Positions 5,870 to 38,156 of a stretch of 42,175 nt of DNA are shown in pieces. The DNA comes from a virus: positions 1 to 42,175 of the IMG/VR virus record IMGVR_UViG_3300009537_000050; one strand, given 5' to 3'. A program made the position numbers and the translations under genes. Within the stretch, counting starts at the first letter, position 1. Every line of letters begins with the position of its first letter. The notes under the pieces are model-generated. The model was given only the letters and a program-made list of their open reading frames with translations. It did no database searches and was not told where the DNA came from.

Positions 5870-7527
5870 TACCCTGCCCTCACTAAGTTACGACCAATGA
5901 GCCTGTCGTTGATAAGCTCCTCAAAATCATCTGCCATATCAAGCAAGAATTGCTTTCGCGCCGTAGCATCTGGTATGTTCGCGAACCCTATGCTTGGGGC
6001 GAAGGTAAAGCCGCCGACGGAGCCTGCTGCAGCAACAGGCGTAGGACTCTGTACAACGCCGCCTGACGCGAATCCAGGCGCAGCAGGACCTACCGCGCCC
6101 CCGCCTGTTTGACTCGGCCTAGTTCGAAGAACAGAGCGTGCGAAACGTTCTATGTCTCTGTTCTCTTCGACCGTCAGAACCCTCTCGTTTGGCTTCAGAA
6201 GACCTAGAACAGAGTCCTGTCCAGGAGTACCTCCGCGAACTACCCCGCCGCGTTCGAACTTATTGAGGAACGCTTTTGAAAGTGTGTAAATAGCTGTGGA
6301 CGCAACTGTTGCGAGCAATGGACCTACAACTGGAATCGCAGCTTGCGATGCTGCAGCTCCAGAACCCGCAACAGCAGCGTTCGCTAAAATCGATTTAGTG
6401 GCAAATTGAACAACGGCCTGAATACTTTGTTGGGCGAACTGCTTCACGGCGGTCTTCGCATCCGTAGTTCCATCTATGAGCGCAGAAAAAGCGGCCCCTG
6501 TGATATTGACCCCACTCGTTATCAGCTCAACAGTACGTTGTTGCGCAGCCTCTGAAAGCGCAATCTGTTCATTAGTTGCTTTCGTTCTAATCTCAAGCTC
6601 CTTCCTGGCTTGCTCCTCACGAAGGGCGAGAATCTGCTGTTGAACTTCGCGTTCTCTTTGCGCGCGAGCTCTAAGAACTTCTTCTCTTTGCCTTTCAGCT
6701 TCACGTTTCTTTCGTTCCGCCTCTCTTTCCATCTTTGCCACGTCTGCCGTCAGCTTGCTCTTTCGCTCCAATCGAAGCTTCTCATTCTCTTCAGCTGTTT
6801 GAAGTTGCTTCAAAAGGTCAAGCTTTTGTCGACGGACATCGTTGGCTTTGTTTGCTACATCGATAGCTCTATCGTTAGCCTCGATGGTTCTCTGCTCACG
6901 GTCCGACAAATCTTCTTGGATGACGATTGAATTTTCATCTTCCGCATTCTTGCGGACTATAGCGTCCGTTTCTCTTTCGAGCGCTTGGATGTTTATGTTG
7001 GAAGATTCAATCTGCTCTTCAAGAAGTTTGATTTGCTGCTGCCTCGCAGAAAGGCCGAAGAGTCGAAGCTCATCAGATAACGAACGCACCGCATCCTTTT
7101 GTTCGCTAAGTCGAAGTCTCGTACCGATAAGCACTCCCTCGATGCTACGTTGCGCGTCCTCTGCCGCTTTCGTATCAGCTTTGTACGCGTCCCACGCAGC
7201 GGACCCAGCAATAAGTAACCCGGTTGCTGAAGCGAGCGCTATGCCTAAAGGACCTCCTGTAGCAGCAAGTCCAGCAACCGCGGTTATCTTATTGGCTGCG
7301 TCTGCCAATCTACCAGACATTTGAGAGGTGGCGTTTTGGAATAAGAGCATCGATGTCGATGCCTTACCAAGAGCGTCTGGGAGTTTAGCAACGCTATCTC
7401 CAGCACTCTTAGAAGAGACAGATATCCCGCCAAAGGAAGCCTTAGCATTATCACCAAGTTTCTTGATGATTGCGCTTGCGCGGTCCTTCGCCGCGATGAT
7501 AAGACCTATCTCTCTGTTGTCAGCCAC
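5869..7527 (-). CDS. Tape measure protein, 552 aa
   Basis: Follows the G/GT chaperone pair. Has a long charged coiled-coil core (EREAERKKREAERQREE...) flanked by Gly/Ala-rich hydrophobic segments. GTG start with AGGGG upstream. Confidence 0.8.
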   Translation of the reverse strand: MADNREIGLIIAAKDRASAIIKKLGDNAKASFGGISVSSKSAGDSVAKLPDALGKASTSMLLFQNATSQMSGRLADAANKITAVAGLAATGGPLGIALASATGLLIAGSAAWDAYKADTKAAEDAQRSIEGVLIGTRLRLSEQKDAVRSLSDELRLFGLSARQQQIKLLEEQIESSNINIQALERETDAIVRKNAEDENSIVIQEDLSDREQRTIEANDRAIDVANKANDVRRQKLDLLKQLQTAEENEKLRLERKSKLTADVAKMEREAERKKREAERQREEVLRARAQREREVQQQILALREEQARKELEIRTKATNEQIALSEAAQQRTVELITSGVNITGAAFSALIDGTTDAKTAVKQFAQQSIQAVVQFATKSILANAAVAGSGAAASQAAIPVVGPLLATVASTAIYTLSKAFLNKFERGGVVRGGTPGQDSVLGLLKPNERVLTVEENRDIERFARSVLRTRPSQTGGGAVGPAAPGFASGGVVQSPTPVAAAGSVGGFTFAPSIGFANIPDATARKQFLLDMADDFEELINDRLIGRNLVRAG

Positions 7528-7536
7528 TTTTGACCC

Positions 7537-8291
7537 CTACGATAATTCCCTTAGAGCCACCTCACAAACTGAAACTGCCTGATAGATTCCCATTATCTGG
7601 TCTAGCGCATCACCAGGTTCTGGAAATACACCGAACAACCTCCAATCCTTCCAAATGCGTACGAGGTCCATGACATCTCTGTCACTGATAATGCTTCTAG
7701 GGCAACGGTCTAAACCTGGAGCCCATTCCCACCCAACCTCAGCTCCTCCCCCGTCGCAATTGCGTGAACGCCTTTTCTCGGCGTCCGGCAATCTTCCGTC
7801 TGGGATTGAATTGTCGTTGCCTGGGTCGTCTGGTCTTCGGCTCGGGTCGCACCTACTACATCTCCATTCACGCACCCTGGCTGGAGCGTTTGAGAGGATG
7901 ACGACCGCGAGCCCAAGACTTTTCCCAAACCAGCATCGAGATACGCACGATTCCTTACAGCCGCCGCGATATCGTTGATGACATCTGGCTCACCGTGTTC
8001 CCAGACCTCCTCGCCTGTCGTCAATTCAATACCATTCGGCGCGTAGTTCTTAACACCACGAACGTTTTGAATGAACAATTGTCGGGCAGCTTCCTGCAAA
8101 GCCTCAGAGACAGTTTGCGCATCGTTAGCTGGGCTTTCAAGACGTTCGAACTCTCGCGCCTTCCTCGCCGTCAACCATCGAACCTCTACCGTAAAGGCGT
8201 CCTCCGGGGTATGAGCAAATACAGAGCGTTCATTGCCTACGTCTGGAACGTAGACCTCCCACTCTGAAATCTTGTTAAATCTTCTTGCCAT
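7537..8291 (-). CDS. Tail assembly chaperone GT (-1 frameshift fusion, about 251 aa)
   Basis: ORF 7537..7875 is in the -1 frame relative to 7710..8291, and that frame stays open back to the slippery site at 7926-7920. Confidence 0.6.
7710..8291 (-). CDS. Tail assembly chaperone G (zero-frame product, 193 aa)
   Basis: Lies between the tail tube and tape measure genes. It overlaps a -1 frame ORF and contains a canonical slippery heptamer. Confidence 0.7.
   Translation of the reverse strand: MARRFNKISEWEVYVPDVGNERSVFAHTPEDAFTVEVRWLTARKAREFERLESPANDAQTVSEALQEAARQLFIQNVRGVKNYAPNGIELTTGEEVWEHGEPDVINDIAAAVRNRAYLDAGLGKVLGSRSSSSQTLQPGCVNGDVVGATRAEDQTTQATTIQSQTEDCRTPRKGVHAIATGEELRLGGNGLQV
7920..7926 (-). 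promoter_or_regulatory. Programmed -1 frameshift slippery heptamer G_GGA_AAA
   Basis: The minus strand reads GGGAAAA, with GGA and AAA as zero-frame codons 123-124 of G. This is the same X_XXY_YYZ class as lambda G/GT (G_GGA_AAG). Confidence 0.65.
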
Positions 8292-15784: not shown

Positions 15785-15996
15785 GAACCTGTAACCTCAA
15801 CCGGCTTAGGGCTCATGCCGGGAGGCCTCTTGAGAGACACAGGGTCGCGGTCACTGTACGCATCAGAAAGGTCTTTGTAAACATCACAAACGAACCTCTG
15901 AACGAACCGGCATCGAGGGCACTTTATCTCGACCGTACCTAGTAATCCTCGACCTAGGCGCTTCTGGCATTTACCGCATGTCAGCCATTCAGTCAT
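15781..15996 (-). CDS. Com-type zinc-ribbon protein, 71 aa
   Basis: CGKCQKRL-x11-EIKCPRC parallels Mu Com (C.NCNKLL...EIRCPRC). Coupled at both ends: TAATG with the portal and ATGA with the protease. Confidence 0.6.
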   Translation of the reverse strand: MTEWLTCGKCQKRLGRGLLGTVEIKCPRCRFVQRFVCDVYKDLSDAYSDRDPVSLKRPPGMSPKPVEVTGS

Positions 15997-17873
15997 TAGA
16001 ATCCACCCCCAAGGAACTTGATAAGGTCACGTCGACGAATACGAACCTGGTTTCCTATCTTCCTACCAGGAAGACGACCTCGCTTGAGGTTGTTCATAAC
16101 GCTGTTTCTTGTCATACCTAGAAGCTCTGCAGCTTGGGTAAGGTCTAACATCTCATCAGGAATCTCTTCCTCCTCCTCTTCCTTTTCAACGGTAGGCGAG
16201 AAGTTTAGTTGCTGTTGTTGCATTCCTCCAGTCATCGTAGGAAGAGAGTCGCCTCCTGTGTCTGAAGACACAAAGAACGTTCGACCTATCTCTCCCATGA
16301 GACGTTCTGCTTTGTTCGCGTCTAGTTGAAACGCGGTCTGGATAATCTCCAAACCGTTAGCGCGTGGAAGTTGACCTGATGCGACACCGTTCAGAACTTC
16401 AAGCAGCGAAGCAATCTGAGCACCGTTCAACGATACTTCTGGGGCGGTCTCTTGTCCAGGGACAGTAATCGTCGGCTCTTCTGCCGTCGACTCACTGGAC
16501 GTCTCATCACCTGTTTGAATCTCTGGAGGATTTCCAGCGTTGACGAACTCAGCGAAGTTGAGACTATCCTCTCTAGGTTCTAGTCCAATCTGCTTACGGC
16601 CCCAGTCGTCGATGTCCTTACCCGGTTCCATCGCACCAACGCCTATGAGTGCAGAGATGAAGCCAGCGGCCTCTGTTAGTGACGAACGCTCAACGTCGCC
16701 GCTCTCAATCTTCGGCCATGCTTCACGCGGTATCCCCTCGAGGCGCATCAACCTTGGAATCGCAGACCTGTTGATGGTCTCGTCCATATTCTTGTTCACT
16801 GCACCAACAGCGAACCCAAGCATCGAAGTCATGTCTGAACTAAGGGCGTGACTACCAACCTGCTGTGTACCAAACGCGAGGAACTGAGTCATGAAGACTT
16901 TCAGCATCTCGTTCTGATACCGCCTGATGATTGGGTCGCCGTCAAGCAAGCTTCGACCGCTGGCCGCTACCAACCTGAACCTGTACCCAGATGGTTTGCC
17001 GTCATCGTTCAGCTCAGTCGGTATAACGAGTCCGCCTTGTTCATCAAAACGGACCTTCTTAACCATAGCCTCATAAACCGCACGCGCGGCAAGCTCATCG
17101 TCGTTTGCATCAGCGCTCATCAATCTCTCAGGTAGTTCCATGACCGGAAGACCTGCGCCGTTGCGTTCATGAACGATGCCCTCAATCGTTCGGTGTTTCG
17201 TGCAGAAGTAATACGAGACATACGCGGGGCGGTAGAACGATAGGCCTTCAGGATTCTGCTTCGACCCTCTGAACCTGAAGTGGAGCGCTCTGTCAACTGG
17301 AATGAACATGTCGGGCATCGAGCGGTCGACAGTCTGCCACATACCGAGGAGACGATTGTCTTTCGAATACTCCCAACGATGTCTCGACTCTTGCGCACGA
17401 GGAGACCAGTCACGCCATCCCCAGCGTCCATCATTATATTGAGAGTTGAGTCTGGGCTCTCTGTTCTCACCCTTTCGAATCTTCATCGTAACTTCGAGGT
17501 ACGAGAACCCGTAATCGATAGCAGTAGCTGCTTCAGACAACGCCTCTTGCAGCGTCGACTCCATGTCGTGCAGGCACTCGCGAACGTGGTCCGCTGCTTG
17601 TTGCGCTAGAGGATGTCCGCTATCATTAGGCTTGACTGTGCGAGGCGTGTTGCGAATGAGCATCTCAATGACGAACTTACTTGCTGCAACGTTCGACTCG
17701 TTGTGTCCCATCTCCTTGTATACGCGCAACGCTTTGTCGCCGCGAAGATTGCGATGGAACTCTTCGTTGATGTAGCCGCCGGTTTCTTTGAGACCCGTAT
17801 CTCCGCAAACAGCGAGGATAGGCTTCTCTTCAATCTCTACACCGTCACGACTCTTCACAGCTGTATCACTCAT
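15996..17873 (-). CDS. Portal protein with a C-terminal excisionase-type HTH, 625 aa
   Basis: Size and position between MuF-like/terL and the protease. The last 50 aa, LDLTQAAELLGMTRNSVMNNLKRGRLPGRKIGNQVRIRRRDLIKFL, match the HTH_17/Xis-type pattern and follow a poly-Glu linker. Confidence 0.75.
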   Translation of the reverse strand: MSDTAVKSRDGVEIEEKPILAVCGDTGLKETGGYINEEFHRNLRGDKALRVYKEMGHNESNVAASKFVIEMLIRNTPRTVKPNDSGHPLAQQAADHVRECLHDMESTLQEALSEAATAIDYGFSYLEVTMKIRKGENREPRLNSQYNDGRWGWRDWSPRAQESRHRWEYSKDNRLLGMWQTVDRSMPDMFIPVDRALHFRFRGSKQNPEGLSFYRPAYVSYYFCTKHRTIEGIVHERNGAGLPVMELPERLMSADANDDELAARAVYEAMVKKVRFDEQGGLVIPTELNDDGKPSGYRFRLVAASGRSLLDGDPIIRRYQNEMLKVFMTQFLAFGTQQVGSHALSSDMTSMLGFAVGAVNKNMDETINRSAIPRLMRLEGIPREAWPKIESGDVERSSLTEAAGFISALIGVGAMEPGKDIDDWGRKQIGLEPREDSLNFAEFVNAGNPPEIQTGDETSSESTAEEPTITVPGQETAPEVSLNGAQIASLLEVLNGVASGQLPRANGLEIIQTAFQLDANKAERLMGEIGRTFFVSSDTGGDSLPTMTGGMQQQQLNFSPTVEKEEEEEEIPDEMLDLTQAAELLGMTRNSVMNNLKRGRLPGRKIGNQVRIRRRDLIKFLGGGF

Positions 17874-25374: not shown

Positions 25375-25647
25375 ATGACCCCTCTTGAACGCCTCCGCGC
25401 TTGCGCGAACGCCGCTGAACTAAAGACTGCTTTCCGCAGCCTTGTAGCGTCAGCTCATCCAGACATAGGCGGAGATGTTGATGAGTTCATAGCGTTACGG
25501 CAAGAGTATGAGAAACTCCTCGTGCGTCTAAAGGAACGAGACGCGCGGTGTGAGGAGTGTGAAGGGACTGGTCGAGTCCGTCGTGCCAGAGGGTGGTTAG
25601 CGGTGGACGAGGCGTGTCCCGTCTGTGGAGGGAGCGGAAAGACTTGA
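25375..25647 (+). CDS. Mini-DnaJ: J-domain core (HPD) plus two CxxCxGxG zinc-finger motifs, 90 aa
   Basis: LKTAFRSLVASAHPDIGGD..EFIALRQEYEKLL matches helix II-HPD-helix III. CEECEGTG and CPVCGGSG match the DnaJ zinc-centre motif. Confidence 0.7.
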   Translation: MTPLERLRACANAAELKTAFRSLVASAHPDIGGDVDEFIALRQEYEKLLVRLKERDARCEECEGTGRVRRARGWLAVDEACPVCGGSGKT

Positions 25648-31178: not shown

Positions 31179-32547
31179 AGCGGTCACGTGGCTCGTTAAG
31201 AGAGCTGAAGCGGCGCTCTTCCTCGACCCTGGTCTTGGCAAGACTGCTGCTACACTACGTGCGTTCCTCGCCCTAAAGAAAGCGGGCGTCGCAGGGAAGA
31301 TGTTGGTCATCGCGCCGAAGCGTCCGTGCTATTTGGTATGGAGTCATCGCGGTGAGATAGGCAAATGGAAAGACTTCAGACATCTTACCGTATCGTTACT
31401 CCATGGTCCGAATAAAGAAGGCGCGCTGGAAGAGGATGCTGATATCTATGTCATCAACCATGATGGGCTTCGGTGGCTTTGTGAACCTAAGCGTGTTCGG
31501 AAGCTCATCAAACGCGGCGTTAAGCTTGTTGTCATCGATGAGCTTTCGAAGTTCAAACATCCGCGGACGATGAGATTCAAAGCGTTCAAGAAGTGGCTTG
31601 GGTGTTTCCCACGCCGGTGGGGCTTAACAGGTTCTCCAGCGTCTAATGGACTGATTGATTTATTCGGGCAGGTGTACGTCCTGGATAAAGGTCGTCGACT
31701 CGGCCAATATATTACCCACTATAGGTATCAGTATTTCTATCCAACTGGTTTCGGTGGGTATCAGTATGCGCTGCAGGACGGGGCAGAGAAACGGATTTAC
31801 AAGAAGCTCAAAGACCTAGCCTTGTCAATGAAAGCTGAAGACCACCTAGACCTTCCCCAGCTAGTAGAACGAGACATCTACGTCACGTTGCCCAGTAAAG
31901 CTGGAACGCTGTACCGTCAGATTGAGGAGGACTTCTTCGCACTCTATGATAAGGATGTGGTAGTTGCAGCCAATGCAGCAGTTGCTAGCGGTAAATGTAG
32001 GCAGGTTGCATCTGGTGGAATATACGTTGAACGCAGTAACAAGAAACGCGTTACACGATTTATCCACAATGAAAAGACAGAGGCTCTTGTCGACCTCGTT
32101 GATGAACTTCAAGGCGCGCCGTTACTGGTCGGATATGAATTCCAACACGACCTTGAAAGAATCCGCGAGGCGTTGGGTAAGAATACACCGGCAATCAGTG
32201 GGAGTATGGGAGACCGTGAACTAATACGCGTTGTCGACAAATGGAATGACGGGAAGATTCCCGTACTATGCGCCCATCCAGCCGCGGCCGGACATGGATT
32301 GAATCTTCAAGGTTCATCATGTAGCCACGTCTGCTGGTACTCGCCCACGTGGGACTTCGAACTATACGACCAATTTATCCGACGCGTGTGGAGACAGGGG
32401 ACGAAAGCCTCTAGGACAATAGTCCATCGAATCATCGCGCACAACACTCTTGATGAAGTCGTCATCAAAGCGTTACGCTCTAAGCAACGACGGCAGGACG
32501 CGCTCATGTCGGCGCTTAAAAAATATCGTAGTTCAAGGGTTCTCTAA
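31048..32547 (+). CDS. SNF2-family helicase/translocase
   Basis: Motifs: PHAYQ, LDPGLGKT (I), VIDELSKF (II), GHGLNLQ (V), Q..RR.WRQG (VI). The start is uncertain: TTG 31048, ATG 31072 or ATG 31096. Every option overlaps the VRR-NUC gene. Confidence 0.85.
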   Translation: MEHCNDIVMTYLESLGMRFEHSTVYPQLCSTSDKSWQPHAYQRKAVTWLVKRAEAALFLDPGLGKTAATLRAFLALKKAGVAGKMLVIAPKRPCYLVWSHRGEIGKWKDFRHLTVSLLHGPNKEGALEEDADIYVINHDGLRWLCEPKRVRKLIKRGVKLVVIDELSKFKHPRTMRFKAFKKWLGCFPRRWGLTGSPASNGLIDLFGQVYVLDKGRRLGQYITHYRYQYFYPTGFGGYQYALQDGAEKRIYKKLKDLALSMKAEDHLDLPQLVERDIYVTLPSKAGTLYRQIEEDFFALYDKDVVVAANAAVASGKCRQVASGGIYVERSNKKRVTRFIHNEKTEALVDLVDELQGAPLLVGYEFQHDLERIREALGKNTPAISGSMGDRELIRVVDKWNDGKIPVLCAHPAAAGHGLNLQGSSCSHVCWYSPTWDFELYDQFIRRVWRQGTKASRTIVHRIIAHNTLDEVVIKALRSKQRRQDALMSALKKYRSSRVL

Positions 32548-32599
32548 GGTCAGTTCATTTGCTATCCGGAGGGTATCTCTAACAGCTGAGGAGTTAGCT

Positions 32600-33385
32600 A
32601 TGGCAAAGAAGACTATGCGCAAGAAGGTGTCGAAGAAGGTGTCGAAGAAGGTGTCGAAGAAGGTGTCGAAGAAACGTGTTGCTGTGAAGAAACAACCTGA
32701 ACCGGTTATTCGTAGCCAAAAGGTTGTGAAGAAAAGGAGTGGTCTACCGGCGACAGTTACGAAGACCTTCACCCACCACGTCGATGTACCGAAGCCAACA
32801 GAAGCTCAGGCAGAAGCCCGCAAAAAGGCGTTCGTTGCAATAGACCACGAACAACGCACGTGTATTGCTTTTCACAGAACGGCCGGACAAGTAACGTTCA
32901 CGTGCCATTCAGAGAATGGTTTCACACTTGAGACCTGGCCGTCGAAAGATTTTGATGAGGTTTACAAAAAGGTTGAGGATTACCCCGTCGGCAGAGCTGC
33001 TGTCCTCTACGTGGAATTCGCCACTGTGATGGGCGCTGACGACGAGGTGATGGATAAGTTGACCACGTTGGTCAACGTTTCAAAGAAGGAGTTGGAGATG
33101 ACGAAGAAGAAGCCAGTGAAGAAGAGTGCTGCAAAGGGTCAGTCTCGTACGGCCCGTGTGAAGGGCGCGAAGGAAGCAAAGAAGGCTTCTGCCCCACGCC
33201 AGGCGAAAGACTCTGCGTCCAGTATGTTTCGCGAACTCATCATGCAGGGCAAGCTCACGGACGACCAGATTTTTGAGCGCGTCCAGAAGAAGTACGGGCT
33301 GGACGAAAAGAAGCGTAGCTACGTCTCCTGGTACCGCAATCAACTCACAAAGATGGGGAAGAACCCACCGAAGGCGAAGAAGTAG
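32600..33385 (+). CDS. Lys-rich histone-like protein, paralogue of 25756..26079 at the C-terminus (261 aa from the ATG)
   Basis: The ATG at 32600 has GAGGAG upstream. The N-terminal (KKVS)x4 is encoded by a 12-bp tandem repeat. The C-terminal SSMFRELIMQGKLTDDQIF...SWYRNQL aligns with SSVARELIRQGQTNAQIW...SWYRSKM. Confidence 0.7.
   Translation: MAKKTMRKKVSKKVSKKVSKKVSKKRVAVKKQPEPVIRSQKVVKKRSGLPATVTKTFTHHVDVPKPTEAQAEARKKAFVAIDHEQRTCIAFHRTAGQVTFTCHSENGFTLETWPSKDFDEVYKKVEDYPVGRAAVLYVEFATVMGADDEVMDKLTTLVNVSKKELEMTKKKPVKKSAAKGQSRTARVKGAKEAKKASAPRQAKDSASSMFRELIMQGKLTDDQIFERVQKKYGLDEKKRSYVSWYRNQLTKMGKNPPKAKK
32621..32668 (+). repeat. Perfect 4 x 12-bp in-frame tandem repeat (AAGAAGGTGTCG)
   Basis: Read directly from the sequence. 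It encodes KKVSKKVSKKVSKKVS. Confidence 0.9.
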
Positions 33386-33411: not shown

Positions 33412-33446
33412 GACGGGCGGGGCTAACTACCTCGCCCGTCCTTTTG
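33412..33446 (+). terminator. Intrinsic terminator candidate separating the replication genes from the modification operon
   Basis: GACGGGCGGGG...CCTCGCCCGTC stem (one mismatch) followed by CTTTTG. A GAGGAG RBS for the next gene follows. Confidence 0.5.
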
Positions 33447-33460
33447 CTGAGGAGTAGAAA

Positions 33461-34345
33461 ATGAACAAAGCTGGAAAGTCCGTCGACACGACCCACCTAC
33501 CACTGGCAAAGCATACGTCCATCCGTGGTTACATCCACAGAGACTACCTCGCCCATTGTCTTCGCTATTCGCATGTAGCGAAGTTCATGAATCAACAACG
33601 TAGGTACCAACATTCACACCTACTCGACGTAGGTTGTGGAAGAGAGACTCCACTTGCTCGTCTCATGTATTCAATGAGGATGACGCATAAGACGGGAACC
33701 TATACGGGTGTGGATTATGGAAAAGTGGACTGGCCAGACTCGATGCCAGATAAGCCGAAGAACTTTAATATGAAGCTCATTGAGCGGACGGACTTCGTGG
33801 AGGCGAAACTGCCGCGAAAGAAGTTTAACGTTGGAGTCTGCTTCGAAGTCGTTGAACACGTCGAACCGTTCCACGCATATCAGATTCTCAAACGCCTACG
33901 CCAGTCACTGAGAAGTACAGGAACGGCGTTCATCTCCACGCCCGTATACGACCCTCGCGTCGGAGCTGCTGGGAACCACGTCAATGAGATGTCGTTCGAA
34001 GCGATGTATGCGATGCTCATCTTGGCGGGCTTTGCGGTCGTCGGTAAGTGGGGAACGTTCGCCTCACAGAGGGATTACAAAGATGAACTCAGTAGCTTTA
34101 CAGGTGTGCGTGGAGTCTTTGATGCGTTGAGCGCATACTACGATTCGAACACGCTTGCCTGTATCTTCGCCCCGCTGTTCCCTCAACAGTCACGTAATGT
34201 TCTGTGGCGCGTAAAGGCGATAGGCGATTGTGGAGATGTATTCCACGGTGAGGCTATTAGGAACCTTCGGCGGAAGGTTCATTCCAGTTCCACAAAGTGG
34301 ACCAAAGAATTCTCAAAAATCATTCGCGACGTTTCGTGTTCCTAA
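33461..34345 (+). CDS. Class I SAM-dependent methyltransferase, substrate unknown (294 aa)
   Basis: Motif I LLDVGCGRETP, post-I acidic YTGVDYG, and VCFEVVEHV. No DPPY or PC motif typical of DNA base MTases. Confidence 0.7.
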   Translation: MNKAGKSVDTTHLPLAKHTSIRGYIHRDYLAHCLRYSHVAKFMNQQRRYQHSHLLDVGCGRETPLARLMYSMRMTHKTGTYTGVDYGKVDWPDSMPDKPKNFNMKLIERTDFVEAKLPRKKFNVGVCFEVVEHVEPFHAYQILKRLRQSLRSTGTAFISTPVYDPRVGAAGNHVNEMSFEAMYAMLILAGFAVVGKWGTFASQRDYKDELSSFTGVRGVFDALSAYYDSNTLACIFAPLFPQQSRNVLWRVKAIGDCGDVFHGEAIRNLRRKVHSSSTKWTKEFSKIIRDVSCS

Positions 34346-34357
34346 AGGAGGACCAAC

Positions 34358-35422
34358 ATGTACGCTGTAGCTGGTGACGTATTCGCAGGACTTTTCGCCT
34401 ACGGAATCCGACGTGCTGGATTCAGAGTCGATACACATCTTGCCCATACGGATTATGGGATTGAGATGTACAAGGCTAACTTCAAATCCCACGACGTTCG
34501 GATTGGAAAGGAGAACTGGGACCTGTCAAAGCTTCGACGCAAGGAGCGTCCACATTTGTTCTTTACTAACCCACCATGTGCTCCGTGGTCGAACGCCGGT
34601 CACGGGTCGCGCTTCCGAAAAGGCGAGGCGAAGGACGATAGGCCTGAGTGGATTATCGACCTCATGAATGCTGCGTTTGAAATGCGTGCTGATACGTGGG
34701 TCTGGGAAAGCGTTACCGAGGCGTGGCGTCGTGGACAGGACTTCGTTCTTTCGCGCGCCGAGGAGTGTCTCAGTCACGGGTATAGCGTCACAGTTCTTCT
34801 CCAGAACAACCTCTACCTCGGCGCTCCGCAAAACCGTCGACGTATGTTGTTCATCGCCCACAGATATCCAATCGTATTCCCGCGGTTCAAGCTAAAGCAT
34901 CCAACGGTGCGCGAAGTTCTCAAGGGCGTAAGTCCAGGAAGCACTGTAGGGTGCGACATCTCTCCAAAAGAATGGTCTCTTTACTCAGCGGTAGGCAAAG
35001 AAGGCGGTCCGCTATCCGCTCATTACTCCAACAAGATGACGGACAAAGAACGTAAGCGGATTGATATTACACCTGGAATGAAACCGTCATTCTTGGCACG
35101 CCGTCTGGCTAACGATAAGACGTGCCCTGTGTTTATCAAGAATACGTTTACCTATCACCCAACGCTTCCACGGTATACGACGTGGAACGAAGGTCTTGCA
35201 CTTGCTGGCGCTCCGAAAACATGGAAGCGTACAGCGTCCAACCTCGTTGACAATACCCATCTCCTCGGCCGCGGAGTCCTTCCTGCCGTCGGCAAGTGGA
35301 TTGGGACGGCTGTCGCGACGGGTATCAAGACAGGTTCGCGGATACCAAAACGCGAACGATGCGTCATGCTCTGTGACTTCAGAAAGATGTCGAACATCAT
35401 CGAGGAAAGGATTGACCTATGA
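34358..35422 (+). CDS. DNA cytosine-C5-methyltransferase-like enzyme with a degenerate SAM loop (354 aa)
   Basis: Motif IV FTNPPCAPWSNAG, motif VI WESV (ENV-like), motif VIII QNRRRMLF, motif X GRGVLPAVGKWIG. Motif I reads DVFAGLFAYG in place of FxGxGG. AAGGAGG RBS. Confidence 0.7.
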   Translation: MYAVAGDVFAGLFAYGIRRAGFRVDTHLAHTDYGIEMYKANFKSHDVRIGKENWDLSKLRRKERPHLFFTNPPCAPWSNAGHGSRFRKGEAKDDRPEWIIDLMNAAFEMRADTWVWESVTEAWRRGQDFVLSRAEECLSHGYSVTVLLQNNLYLGAPQNRRRMLFIAHRYPIVFPRFKLKHPTVREVLKGVSPGSTVGCDISPKEWSLYSAVGKEGGPLSAHYSNKMTDKERKRIDITPGMKPSFLARRLANDKTCPVFIKNTFTYHPTLPRYTTWNEGLALAGAPKTWKRTASNLVDNTHLLGRGVLPAVGKWIGTAVATGIKTGSRIPKRERCVMLCDFRKMSNIIEERIDL

Positions 35423-35820
35423 GTTACCAAGACAAAGAGTGTCGAGACCTCCGTGCGTTCAACGCGCGTTTCGGCGTTGAGACGAGTAGGAAACCAACGT
35501 TACTTGTCGATGAGCGAAACAAGGAGAGAATGTATCTCATTGATGAGGAAGCGGATGAGTTGTTCAAGGCGTTTCAACAACGCGACGTTGTTGAAATCGC
35601 GGATGCCCTCATCGACCTCGCATACGTCATCAAAGGAACCGCTGTTATGATGGGTCTTCCGTGGGAAGAGTTGTGGACAGAGGTTCATCAAACAAATATG
35701 GCGAAGGTCCGAAAGACAACGGACCGCGCGAAGATTGATGTTCAGAAACCAGAAGGTTGGAAACCACCGGACGTCAGTGGAATTTTGAAGTCCGCGGGGT
35801 GGGAGGAAGACAATGGGTGA
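35419..35820 (+). CDS. MazG-like all-alpha nucleoside triphosphate pyrophosphohydrolase (133 aa)
   Basis: Metal-binding pattern IDEEADEL ... EIADALIDLAYV. ATGA coupling to the upstream gene. Confidence 0.7.
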   Translation: MSYQDKECRDLRAFNARFGVETSRKPTLLVDERNKERMYLIDEEADELFKAFQQRDVVEIADALIDLAYVIKGTAVMMGLPWEELWTEVHQTNMAKVRKTTDRAKIDVQKPEGWKPPDVSGILKSAGWEEDNG

Positions 35821-36784
35821 GTTCTGCAAAACGGTCACTATCTTTGAAGGTCCTGACGGAAGCGGTAAGACGACAGCAGCTGCGTACTACGCCGACGTTA
35901 TAGGCGCACGCTACGTTCATCTAGGTCCGTTTACCGGCGTCAACCGATGTCTTGCCCGTCTCTACATCGAGGCTATGCTTCCAGCGTTGTACGGGTATCA
36001 GGACGTGGTACTCGACCGTTCATGGTTGAGTGAGGGAATCTACGGAGCCGTGTATCGTGACGGCGCGGATAGGATTCGTGCGTGGCGTCGACGAATGTTG
36101 GAACGTGTAGCGATGAAGTGTGAAGCTCAGGTTGTCCTCTGCCTTCCCGGAATCAATAGATGCGTTTCAAACTTCAACGCGCGTAGAAACCTTGGTGGAG
36201 AATACCTGGATACTGAAGACCACCTTCGGGCTGTTTATCTTGGATACGAGGAGGCGCACGAATCAGGAGAATTTACTGACCTCCAAACGCACCTTTACGA
36301 TTACGAAACGAACTCAGAAACAGACCTCAAGGAGTTGCGCGGCACTCATCCTACGCACCCAGTGCGCGACGTTACGGGAGGAAACCTTGATGCTCCGTTC
36401 GTTATCGTTGGAGATAGCGTTGAAGCTACGCGAGAGCATGACTCACTGTTCAAAGCGCCGTTCGTATCTTTCGGCGGAAAGTGTAGCGCCGCTTGGATTA
36501 CCTCTCGCCTGCAAGCTGCGAAAATCAAGGAGCACGAACTTCTGTGGATTTCCACAGAGAACAACTGCCTCGAACACGTGGAAGAACTTTTGGATACAGC
36601 TCCGCGTGAACACGTCTTCGCACTTGGGCGGGACGCAGCGTTGCTGTTAGCTGATACTGAGTACCCTTTCATGATGGTTAACCACCCTCAACACGCCCGT
36701 AAATTCGGGATGAACAAGGGTTACAAACTCATCAAAGCAATTTTGAAAGTGCGTACGTTGAAAGCGCTAGGGGGTAATAGGTAA
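35813..36784 (+). CDS. Fusion of a thymidylate-kinase-like dNMP kinase with a UDG-fold domain (323 aa)
   Basis: N-terminal domain: IFEGPDGSGKTT P-loop and LDRSWLS (DR motif). C-terminal domain: APFVIVGDSVEATREHDSLFKAPFVSFGG and VNHPQHARKF are laid out like UDG family 4 motifs A (GEAPG...PFVG.AG) and B (HPS...), but with the catalytic motif altered. Confidence 0.6.
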   Translation: MGEFCKTVTIFEGPDGSGKTTAAAYYADVIGARYVHLGPFTGVNRCLARLYIEAMLPALYGYQDVVLDRSWLSEGIYGAVYRDGADRIRAWRRRMLERVAMKCEAQVVLCLPGINRCVSNFNARRNLGGEYLDTEDHLRAVYLGYEEAHESGEFTDLQTHLYDYETNSETDLKELRGTHPTHPVRDVTGGNLDAPFVIVGDSVEATREHDSLFKAPFVSFGGKCSAAWITSRLQAAKIKEHELLWISTENNCLEHVEELLDTAPREHVFALGRDAALLLADTEYPFMMVNHPQHARKFGMNKGYKLIKAILKVRTLKALGGNR

Positions 36785-37605
36785 TGAGAGCCCTGGTTGG
36801 AGACGAGGCCTGGAGAAACCAACTTGCACGTATCATAGAACATGGTCGCGAGACCTCTCCGCGCAGTCAGGATACGTTGGAGATTCTTCAAGATACGAAT
36901 ATCCACATCGATATGAATAGTCCGGTTGTAACGACACCGGATAGGAAACTCAACTATCGATTCATGTGCGCTGAAGCTCTGTGGATTTTGGGAGGAGATA
37001 ACAGACTGGAACCGTTGACACGTTTCATCAAACGGATGGCGAAGTTCTCTGACGACGGCGAGACGCTCGCGGGAGCGTACGGTCCGAAGATAATTCCACA
37101 ACTCAACTACGTCGTCAGTAAACTTTTAGAAGATAAGGACACGCGTCAAGCAGTCTTGACAATTTGGGAGAGAAACCCGCAACCGTCGAAAGACATTCCA
37201 TGTACTGTCTCGATGTCCTTCACGATACGTAATGGGCTCCTCAACCAACACGTCTATATGAGGTCCTCAGATACGTGGCTTGGAATTCCTTACGACATGT
37301 TTTCATTCGCCTGCGTAGGTTTACGCGTAGCGTGCGAATACAATGAACGTCGAATCTATGTCCAGGGTTATAGGCATGGAACGGTGCTTCCAGGAACGTT
37401 GACGATTTCTCCAACGTCTTCGCACCTCTATATGAAGGACTGGCAGAAAGCAAAAGACATTCTGTTCAAGCCCGTCCCGCAGGATATCGAACCCGTGCCA
37501 AACGAGATTATCAAGTATGGGCGGTTCGATTACATCCAACGGTCACTCCTAGCTGTACGCGAAGGGCAAAGACTTTCGCCAGACATGTGGAGGTGCGTAC
37601 CATGA
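36784..37605 (+). CDS. Thymidylate-synthase-family pyrimidine-C5 enzyme with Asp at the Asn177-equivalent position (dCMP hydroxymethylase/methylase candidate)
   Basis: CAEALWILGG (Glu58 region), IPCT (catalytic Cys), and YMRSSDTWLGIPYDMFSF aligned to ThyA YQRSCDVFLGLPFNIASY. Confidence 0.75.
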   Translation: MRALVGDEAWRNQLARIIEHGRETSPRSQDTLEILQDTNIHIDMNSPVVTTPDRKLNYRFMCAEALWILGGDNRLEPLTRFIKRMAKFSDDGETLAGAYGPKIIPQLNYVVSKLLEDKDTRQAVLTIWERNPQPSKDIPCTVSMSFTIRNGLLNQHVYMRSSDTWLGIPYDMFSFACVGLRVACEYNERRIYVQGYRHGTVLPGTLTISPTSSHLYMKDWQKAKDILFKPVPQDIEPVPNEIIKYGRFDYIQRSLLAVREGQRLSPDMWRCVP

Positions 37606-38156
37606 GAATGACGCGCGAAGAGTGGGCGCTCCGTATCGCTGAGGTTGTGGCGATGCGTGCTACGTGTGTGCGTCGACGGGTCGGTTGTGTTCTAACAGAC
37701 AAACATGGTCGAATCCTAGCGACGGGGTACAACGGGGTTGCCACAGGACTTCCACACTGCACTGAAGGACATCCCTGCAAAGGAGCTAACGCGAAGACGG
37801 GGGAGGACCTCGACAACTGTGAGGCTATCCATGCAGAACAGAACGCGCTGCTCCAATGTCAGGATACTCAGAGGATTCACACGTGTTACGTTACGGTATC
37901 TCCATGCATTACGTGTACCAAGCTATTGCTCAACACGTCATGTAGGCGTATCGTATTCATTGAGATGTACGGCGGAGAACCGTGTCCAAGGGAGCTTTGG
38001 AAAAGAAGCGACGACCGGAGACTTTGGTTCTCTGAGCGTTTGAGGACGGAGGTGCAACATGTTAAACAGGGCGGAGAAAGACCGCCCGCACCTTCCGACC
38101 ACGACGACAATCCTGAGATTCCAGATTACGGAAACCTCACGTACTGGCGTTGCTAA
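37602..38156 (+). CDS. dCMP deaminase (184 aa from the coupled ATG)
   Basis: HAEQNAL and PCITCTKLL zinc motifs in a ComEB/dCMP-deaminase layout. The ATG at 37602 overlaps the upstream stop (ATGA) and has GGAGGT 7 nt upstream. Confidence 0.85.
   Translation: MRMTREEWALRIAEVVAMRATCVRRRVGCVLTDKHGRILATGYNGVATGLPHCTEGHPCKGANAKTGEDLDNCEAIHAEQNALLQCQDTQRIHTCYVTVSPCITCTKLLLNTSCRRIVFIEMYGGEPCPRELWKRSDDRRLWFSERLRTEVQHVKQGGERPPAPSDHDDNPEIPDYGNLTYWRC

Follow-up and report, generated by a model that had tools for sequence, protein, structure and literature searches.

A ThyA-like phage gene as a candidate deoxycytidylate 5-hydroxymethylase in a putative cytosine-replacement operon

The DNA analysed here, called the window throughout, is the complete 42,175-nucleotide stretch of IMG/VR virus record IMGVR_UViG_3300009537_000050 (positions 1 to 42,175). 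Its sequence equals that of an entire JGI metagenome contig of 42,175 bp. It is a phage genome, with terminase, portal, MuF, protease and capsid genes on the minus strand and a replication block on the plus strand that comprises a primase, a family-A DNA polymerase, a PD-(D/E)XK nuclease and an SNF2 helicase. The plus strand also carries a run of six genes (33461-38156) whose start and stop codons overlap or lie close together. A strong terminator-like hairpin directly 5' of this run (33412..33446, +; nine G-C pairs among 11, then CTTTTG) probably delimits the transcription unit at its 5' end. The fifth gene is an ATG-to-stop open reading frame (ORF) on the plus strand (36784..37605) that encodes a 273-residue homologue of the thymidylate synthase ThyA. 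We propose that this ThyA-like protein is a folate-dependent deoxycytidylate (dCMP) 5-hydroxymethylase in a cytosine-replacement pathway that acts before replication and is organized as in phage T4, and put the probability of this assignment at roughly 0.7.

An earlier first-pass annotation of the window had recognized a ThyA homologue in exactly this ORF, and profile searches agree. The protein matched Pfam PF00303 (Thymidylat_synt) at E=5.4e-19 with 68.8 bits, above the curated cutoff of 24.3, as well as four PHROG families labelled 'thymidylate synthase' (best 5.5e-38). Databases contain 621 homologues at E<=1e-10, the closest being 59% identical, and the ThyA-like clade is carried by 352 IMG/VR loci. 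When the 2.8-kb module was compared with 50,697 phage records by distant blastn, a single weak match was returned (phage PW916, 66% over 259 nt); without a close sequenced relative, direct transfer of an annotation was impossible. The AlphaFold2 model of the protein, built from an alignment that did not contain the sequence of the related Stenotrophomonas phage AXL3, reached a pLDDT of 96.8 and a pTM of 0.94 and has the ThyA fold. A Foldseek search with the model gave 396 PDB matches at E<=1e-3, and all 50 among the matches listed were MilA or thymidylate synthases.

The closest solved relative was MilA, the cytidylate (CMP) 5-hydroxymethylase of Streptomyces rimofaciens (PDB 5b6d, 5jnh and 5jp9), with ~36% identity over 181 aligned MilA residues. 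Searched with the single sequence, MilA matched at 8.5e-20 compared with 1.6e-12 for the best ThyA; with a profile of 77 family members the corresponding values were 1.7e-35 and 1e-22; and Foldseek placed MilA at E=3.6e-18 (TM 0.72) and ThyA structures at ~1e-13. By sequence, family profile and fold the protein is therefore nearest a cytosine-specific hydroxymethylase and not ThyA. Six NCBIfam thymidylate-synthase models were matched, all far under their curated cutoffs (for example 54.5 bits, the best score, against 174.55, and 52.3 against 325); the protein is not an orthologue of the dTMP-forming enzyme.

To compare active sites the protein was aligned in MAFFT with E. coli ThyA, T4 gp42, the Xp12 thymidylate synthase, the SP8 dUMP hydroxymethylase, MilA and members of its own family. 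The segment YMRSSDTWLGIPYDMFSF aligned without gaps to YQRSCDVFLGLPFNIASY of ThyA, which puts D171 at the position of ThyA Asn177. HMMER pairwise alignments to PDB chains gave the same register, and D171 was invariant in the 77 family members and in 131 of 131 unique homologues from 145 IMG/VR loci. The residue-for-residue match and the Asn177-to-Asp exchange described in the first-pass annotation are thus upheld, and the Asp kept this position in the multiple alignment, with the family profile and in the Foldseek search with the AlphaFold2 model, where a shift would have counted against that description. The catalytic and binding residues are complete: the nucleophile C140 (ThyA Cys146), E64 (Glu58), Y99 (Tyr94), R160/S161 (Arg166/Ser167) and H214/Y216 (His207/Tyr209) are all present and invariant in the 77 homologues, in agreement with the earlier statement that the PC motif and the Glu58 region are retained. 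Further equivalences are D137 with Leu143, T141 with His147, R121 with Arg126 and D163 with Asp169. In ThyA numbering, Asp143, Cys146, Thr147, Asp169 and Asp177 were all invariant across both the 77 family members and the 131 unique IMG/VR homologues.

The W80/W83 segment of ThyA (IWDEW...DLGPVYGKQWR) is not conserved, as had also been noticed before. At this place the window protein has ...RMAKFSDDGETLAGAYGPKI, resembling ...TLRGTAYGPRI of MilA; the two proteins have an AYGP(K/R)I segment in common (AYGPKI in the window protein) and both are without the Trp80 region of ThyA. Trp80 itself aligns to a gap and Trp83 to a Phe. We considered Trp80 as a discriminator between methyl- and hydroxymethyl-forming enzymes and rejected it, because T4 gp42 retains the Trp.

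Published work on this enzyme superfamily allows several of these positions to be read. Asn177Asp turns ThyA towards dCMP, the product of ThyA N177D being 5-methyl-dCMP, and the same position is Asp179 in T4 gp42 and Asp186 in MilA (including PMC5175136); the literature here backs what the first-pass annotation had stated. D171 accordingly points to a cytosine substrate, as do the multiple alignment, the family profile and the modelled fold with MilA as its closest match. Concerning the product, Lee et al. 2026 (PMC13326640) report that methyl products correlate with bulky residues in place of Leu143 and hydroxymethyl products with Asp or Glu there, the acidic residue letting water reach the methylene intermediate. 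The same study describes Asp169->Asn as diagnostic of flavin-dependent 5-hydroxy-dCMP (5hodCMP) synthases, which likewise combine N177D with an acidic Leu143 position.

Positions 143 and 147 are Asp and Thr in the hydroxymethyl-forming T4 gp42 and MilA, Asp and Asn in the SP8 dUMP hydroxymethylase, Asn and Pro in Xp12 and PaMx28 of the 5-methylcytosine (5mC) clade, and Leu and His in E. coli ThyA, which forms the methyl product dTMP. The Asp/Thr pair of the window protein (D137 and T141) would predict a hydroxymethyl and not a methyl product, and the retained Asp169 (D163) argues against a flavin-type 5hodCMP synthase. According to Zhao et al. 2016 (PMC5175136), Ala176 and Lys133 of MilA, equivalent to ThyA Ser167 and Arg126, confer ribonucleotide preference, and Ser/Arg deoxyribonucleotide preference; S161 and R121 of the window protein suggest a 2'-deoxy substrate. 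D143/C146/T147/D169/D177 are identical in the window protein, gp42 and MilA. With gp42 the likeness extends to E58/Y94/R126/D143/C146/T147/R166/S167/D169/D177/H207/Y209, so that a 13-residue active-site signature differs only by Arg127->Gln. The first-pass annotation had held that the product could not be told from sequence. The published Leu143 and Asp169 rules narrow the candidates, favouring 5-hydroxymethyl over 5-methyl and 5-hydroxy.

The ThyA-like gene and its neighbours would between them supply the four enzyme activities encoded together in T4, with a shared pathway logic; the T4 set consists of the gp56 dCTPase, the gp1 deoxynucleoside monophosphate (dNMP) kinase, the gp42 dCMP hydroxymethylase and the cd dCMP deaminase. 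The third gene of the operon (35419..35820, +) encodes an all-alpha nucleoside triphosphate pyrophosphohydrolase of the MazG/PRA-PH type (Pfam PF01503, E=1.4e-15; phrog_671), and its ATG overlaps the preceding stop codon (ATGA). By analogy to gp56 it may be a dCTPase that removes dCTP and supplies dCMP. The fourth gene (35813..36784, +; phrog_761; PDB YorR, 8e-8), whose stop codon shares a TAATG with the start of the ThyA-like gene, encodes a fusion protein that is 39% identical to AXL3 gp29. Its residues 1-175 form a thymidylate-kinase (TMPK)-like dNMP kinase with the P-loop GPDGSGKT and a DRSW motif, and could act as a 5-hydroxymethyl-dCMP (5hm-dCMP) kinase like T4 gp1. The AlphaFold2 model of the fusion (pLDDT 94.5) gave Foldseek matches to dNK/TMPK structures.

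The remaining ~150 residues of the kinase fusion (176-323) carry motifs like those of the UDG superfamily (VGD/E..., PF.SF..GCS.WL and a C-terminal HPQ). Pfam PF03167 (UDG) was matched at sub-threshold values (E 2e-4 to 1.4e-3) by 3 of 10 family members, and on these matches we call the domain UDG-like; a profile search of this half against the PDB gave no match, and Foldseek on the full-length model gave kinase matches only. The fusion is widespread, with 310 homologues and >90% query coverage for most of the best matches.

The last gene (37602..38156, +) encodes a dCMP deaminase (Pfam PF00383, E=3.7e-19; PDB 2hvv, 7e-17; T4 cd, 1vq2) with HAE...PCxxC zinc motifs. The mechanically called ORF begins at GTG 37587; ATG 37602 is the likelier start: a GGAGG lies in front of it, and within ATGA it overlaps the TGA that ends the ThyA-like gene. 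The second gene (34358..35422, +) resembles C5-cytosine DNA methyltransferases (Pfam PF00145, E=4.6e-16), retaining the PC motif, ESV and QNRRR with a degenerate motif I (FAGLFAYG, not FxGxGG). Domain scans of window ORFs of at least 90 amino acids, many of which have no Pfam match at all, found no dihydrofolate reductase (DHFR), ThyX, glycosyltransferase, carbamoyltransferase or arabinosyltransferase.

Starting from the observed fold, active-site signature, operon structure and module conservation, we infer a substrate, a product and flux steps as follows. The MazG-like pyrophosphatase would convert dCTP to dCMP. Cys140 of the ThyA-like enzyme would then attack C6 of dCMP, a methylene would be taken from methylenetetrahydrofolate, and the exocyclic methylene intermediate would be hydrated and not reduced, giving 5hm-dCMP and tetrahydrofolate. 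The adjacent TMPK-like kinase would form 5hm-dCDP, host nucleoside diphosphate kinase the triphosphate, and the family-A DNA polymerase of the phage would insert the 5-hydroxymethyl-deoxycytidine (5hmdC) nucleotide in place of dC. The dCMP deaminase would meanwhile turn some of the dCMP into dUMP, from which dTMP is made. On this scheme the window phage probably replaces cytosine in its DNA, and its pyrophosphatase, kinase, hydroxymethylase and deaminase may reproduce T4 gp56, gp1, gp42 and cd with non-orthologous parts. The system departs from T4 in its partner enzymes, which are a pyrophosphatase of the MazG/PRA-PH type and a TMPK-like kinase carrying the UDG-like fusion. No glucosyltransferase was found in the scanned ORFs, and the phage is siphovirus-like with a 42-kb genome and not T-even.

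The arrangement is conserved well beyond the window. In 54 related IMG/VR loci with full flanks, the deaminase was present in 53, the MazG-like gene in 51, the S-adenosylmethionine (SAM) methyltransferase that opens the operon in 45, the kinase in 37, the extra C-terminal domain of the kinase in 26 and the C5-methyltransferase-like gene, an accessory member, in 6. The module is syntenic with gp31-gp27 of AXL3 and with Pseudoxanthomonas phage PW916, a Manatee Spring siphovirus and many metagenomic contigs. AXL3 and PW916 share with the window both the order methyltransferase, pyrophosphatase, kinase/UDG-like fusion, ThyA-like gene and deaminase and the backbone of PolA, PD-(D/E)XK nuclease and SNF2 helicase. 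AXL3 is the nearest relative in culture, and its ThyA-like protein is 45% identical to that of the window. AXL3 differs in having ThyX and a DNA ligase and in being without the C5-methyltransferase-like gene.

Restriction data exist for AXL3. Its virion DNA was cut by 2 of 37 enzymes, TasI and Tru1I, both with A/T-only sites, and resisted all 35 tested enzymes with G or C in their sites, including KpnI and Eam1105I, an isoschizomer of AhdI. KpnI and AhdI fully digest the 5mC DNA of Xp12, whereas the 5-hydroxymethylcytosine (5hmC) DNA of T4gt resists both (Flodman et al. 2020). The resistance of AXL3 DNA to this pair therefore indicates that its modification is not plain 5mC and is compatible with 5hmC or something bulkier.

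The main rival is a dCMP methylase of the Xp12 type, which would turn dCMP into 5-methyl-dCMP and dihydrofolate, the deaminase then converting part of the 5-methyl-dC pool into dT nucleotides. Xp12 also has Asp at the Asn177 position, N177D turns ThyA itself into a source of 5-methyl-dCMP, and in Xp12 and PaMx28 (the Pamexvirus module) a MazG-like gene and a dCMP deaminase likewise flank the synthase. A 2024 preprint (10.1101/2024.12.05.627091) further reports that 5 of 7 tested deaminase-linked N177D synthases made 5-methyl-dCMP; these were reportedly Xp12/PaMx74-like. In contrast to the Asn143/Pro147 pair of the 5mC clade, Asp143/Thr147 is found in the window protein and all 131 relatives, and identity is 27% to the Xp12 synthase compared with 36% to MilA. 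Xp12 and PaMx28 also differ from the window in having neither methyltransferase nor kinase in the module and in encoding a DHFR two genes from the synthase, just past the deaminase. A linked DHFR fits folate-oxidizing methyl transfer, and the failure to find one in the window fits a reaction that does not oxidize folate. Since AXL3 DNA moreover withstands the two enzymes that cut Xp12 DNA, we consider an Xp12-type methylase unlikely. Less likely again is a route in which 5hm-dCMP is made and the adjacent deaminase converts 5hmdC nucleotides to 5-hydroxymethyl-dU (5hmdU), so that thymine is replaced, alone or together with cytosine. The translational coupling of the deaminase to the ThyA-like gene and its presence in nearly every related locus suit this idea, and 7 of the 90 phage deaminases linked to a synthase deaminated 5hmdC in vivo according to the same preprint, which gives the other 83 as inactive in this way. 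The window deaminase is most like ordinary dCMP deaminases (2hvv and T4 cd). That AXL3 DNA was cut by TasI and Tru1I only also speaks for modified C or G, weakly so because 5hmdU DNA is likewise cut by the AATT enzyme MluCI.

An ordinary thymidylate synthase converting dUMP to dTMP, with the deaminase serving a dCMP to dUMP to dTMP salvage, would agree with the annotation of homologues (AXL3, JGI) and with a neighbouring enzyme that makes dUMP. We regard it as highly improbable: Asn177, Leu143, His147 and Trp80/Trp83 are all altered, the scores stay far under every NCBIfam thymidylate-synthase cutoff, and the separate ThyX of AXL3 makes the ThyA-like gene unnecessary for dTMP synthesis in that phage. 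Equally slim is the prospect of a flavin-dependent 5hodCMP synthase of the RB69 gp48 / DLP3 gp80 type, or of a CMP hydroxymethylase like MilA. The first would share N177D and an acidic Leu143 position with the window protein and the second is its closest solved structure; the diagnostic D169N is nevertheless missing, Asp163 being invariant, and the ribose determinants Ala176/Lys133 of MilA (also looked for as a MilA/BcmA signature) are Ser161/Arg121 here. No arabinosyl- or glycosyltransferase was found among the scanned ORFs, and the gene sits in a phage DNA replication operon, in contrast to the antibiotic pathway of MilA. A gp42-class enzyme remains the assignment that combines Asp at Asn177, an acidic Leu143 position, and Ser167 with Arg126.

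Several points weigh against a dCMP hydroxymethylase. Identity to T4 gp42 is only 19%, and gp42 was absent from the top PDB matches. The function of the ThyA-like clade is a prediction from comparisons of sequence and fold, and how Asp171 and Asp137 would sit against the substrate is taken from the alignment; the Leu143 rule is a correlation drawn from a small number of characterized enzymes, and the difference between Asp and Asn is subtle. The 5-methyl-dCMP formed by most of the tested deaminase-linked synthases counts here too. A detectable kinase is missing in 17 of the 54 related loci, and the C5-cytosine methyltransferase-like gene in the operon is puzzling, as it would have no substrate if cytosine were fully replaced. 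The restriction data concern a relative and not the window phage, and a bulkier or a guanine modification would also fit them.

The first gene of the operon raises the possibility that 5hmC is not the end product. This SAM methyltransferase (33461..34345, +; Pfam Methyltransf_23) is a homologue of AXL3 gp31. As a single sequence it found no match in the PDB; its family profile was nearest to O-methyltransferases, matching UbiG (2e-10) and the bacterial, plant and human Hen1 RNA 2'-O-methyltransferases (7e-8 to 7e-7). Its residues E129, E132 and H133 are invariant and align with the EVIEH motif of Hen1, and N172, H173 and E176 are invariant as well. In a second IMG/VR search seeded with the methyltransferase family, the synthase lay downstream in 44 of the 58 best loci and a divergent synthase directly upstream in 11 more (55 of 58 in total), all with the Asp143/Asp169/Asp177 signature. 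Most of these loci have another backbone: among the 58, two carry the PD-(D/E)XK nuclease and five the SNF2 helicase. The linkage thus holds in two gene orders and two genome backbones, which argues that the methyltransferase is not a mere passenger of shared ancestry. Xp12 and PaMx28 lack a methyltransferase of this kind.

We tentatively suggest, as an outside possibility, that 5hmC is only an intermediate and that the UbiG/Hen1-like methyltransferase methylates the oxygen of the 5-hydroxymethyl group, or some other atom in the modified nucleotide or DNA base, to give an undescribed hypermodification such as 5-methoxymethylcytosine. A parallel to such tailoring would be the 5hmC carbamoyltransferase encoded with this core module in other metavirome phages, and the UDG-like half of the kinase fusion could contribute, for instance through base flipping. 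The methyltransferase could equally act on RNA or another substrate. A literature search returned no report of 5-methoxymethylcytosine in phages or of the identity of the AXL3 modification.

The novelty implied by the first-pass annotation was overrated. In metaviromes enriched experimentally for modified cytosine, synthase (N177D), PRA-PH and dCMP deaminase domains co-localize (Yang et al. 2021 eLife; bioRxiv 10.1101/2024.12.05.627091, the 2024 mSCD-B5 preprint). In these MetaGPA modules the Pfam domains of the window module likewise fall within a few kb, accompanied by a family-A DNA polymerase, and the synthases show the N177D and position-147 differences seen in the window protein. Since marker residues and neighbourhood, including PolA, are already published for phage metagenomes, no new mechanism is claimed, and the window gene is a further predicted member of a known strategy, in an AXL3-like clade. 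The modules validated there are of the 5-carbamoyloxymethyl-C type (with a carbamoyltransferase) and the 5mC type, and the searchable text of these reports does not mention a SAM methyltransferase or a kinase-UDG-like fusion. The new lead is therefore the O-methyltransferase-like gene beside the synthase, a constant companion that may mark an undescribed 5hmC derivative and possibly a new DNA base.

Homologues of the window gene are labelled thymidylate synthase, both by JGI and in the literature on AXL3, which is a candidate therapeutic phage, or else deoxyuridylate hydroxymethyltransferase. The residues at the predicted active site contradict both names, and the gene most likely marks phage DNA without ordinary cytosine. 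Such DNA bears on restriction and CRISPR sensitivity, on phage sequencing and cloning, on host-range engineering and on the mining of enzymes for epigenetic sequencing.

Some further observations were made in and around the window. Pelagibacter phage HTVC200P, a T7-like pelagiphage, encodes at 6478-7756 a ThyA homologue with D143/T147/D177 directly after a small kinase homologue, with no methyltransferase, MazG or deaminase gene nearby; its residues suggest that cytosine modification occurs in Autographiviridae pelagiphages too. The Mu-type portal ORF of the window (15996-17873, -) has a C-terminal HTH_17 domain (residues 575-621, E=1.2e-10), which reflects either an unusual fusion or an overlooked boundary between two genes. 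A small protein encoded at 25375-25647 (+) matches the DnaJ-type CXXCXGXG zinc finger at E=7.6e-6, under the Pfam cutoff, and the AXL3 replication module likewise has an annotated DnaJ-like protein. The ORF at 32450-33385 (+) encodes a lysine-rich protein without Pfam or PHROG match in which KKVS is tandemly repeated near the N-terminus; in AXL3 (gp32), MW202621 and most related loci the C-terminal part recurs at 35-43% identity directly 5' of the methyltransferase.

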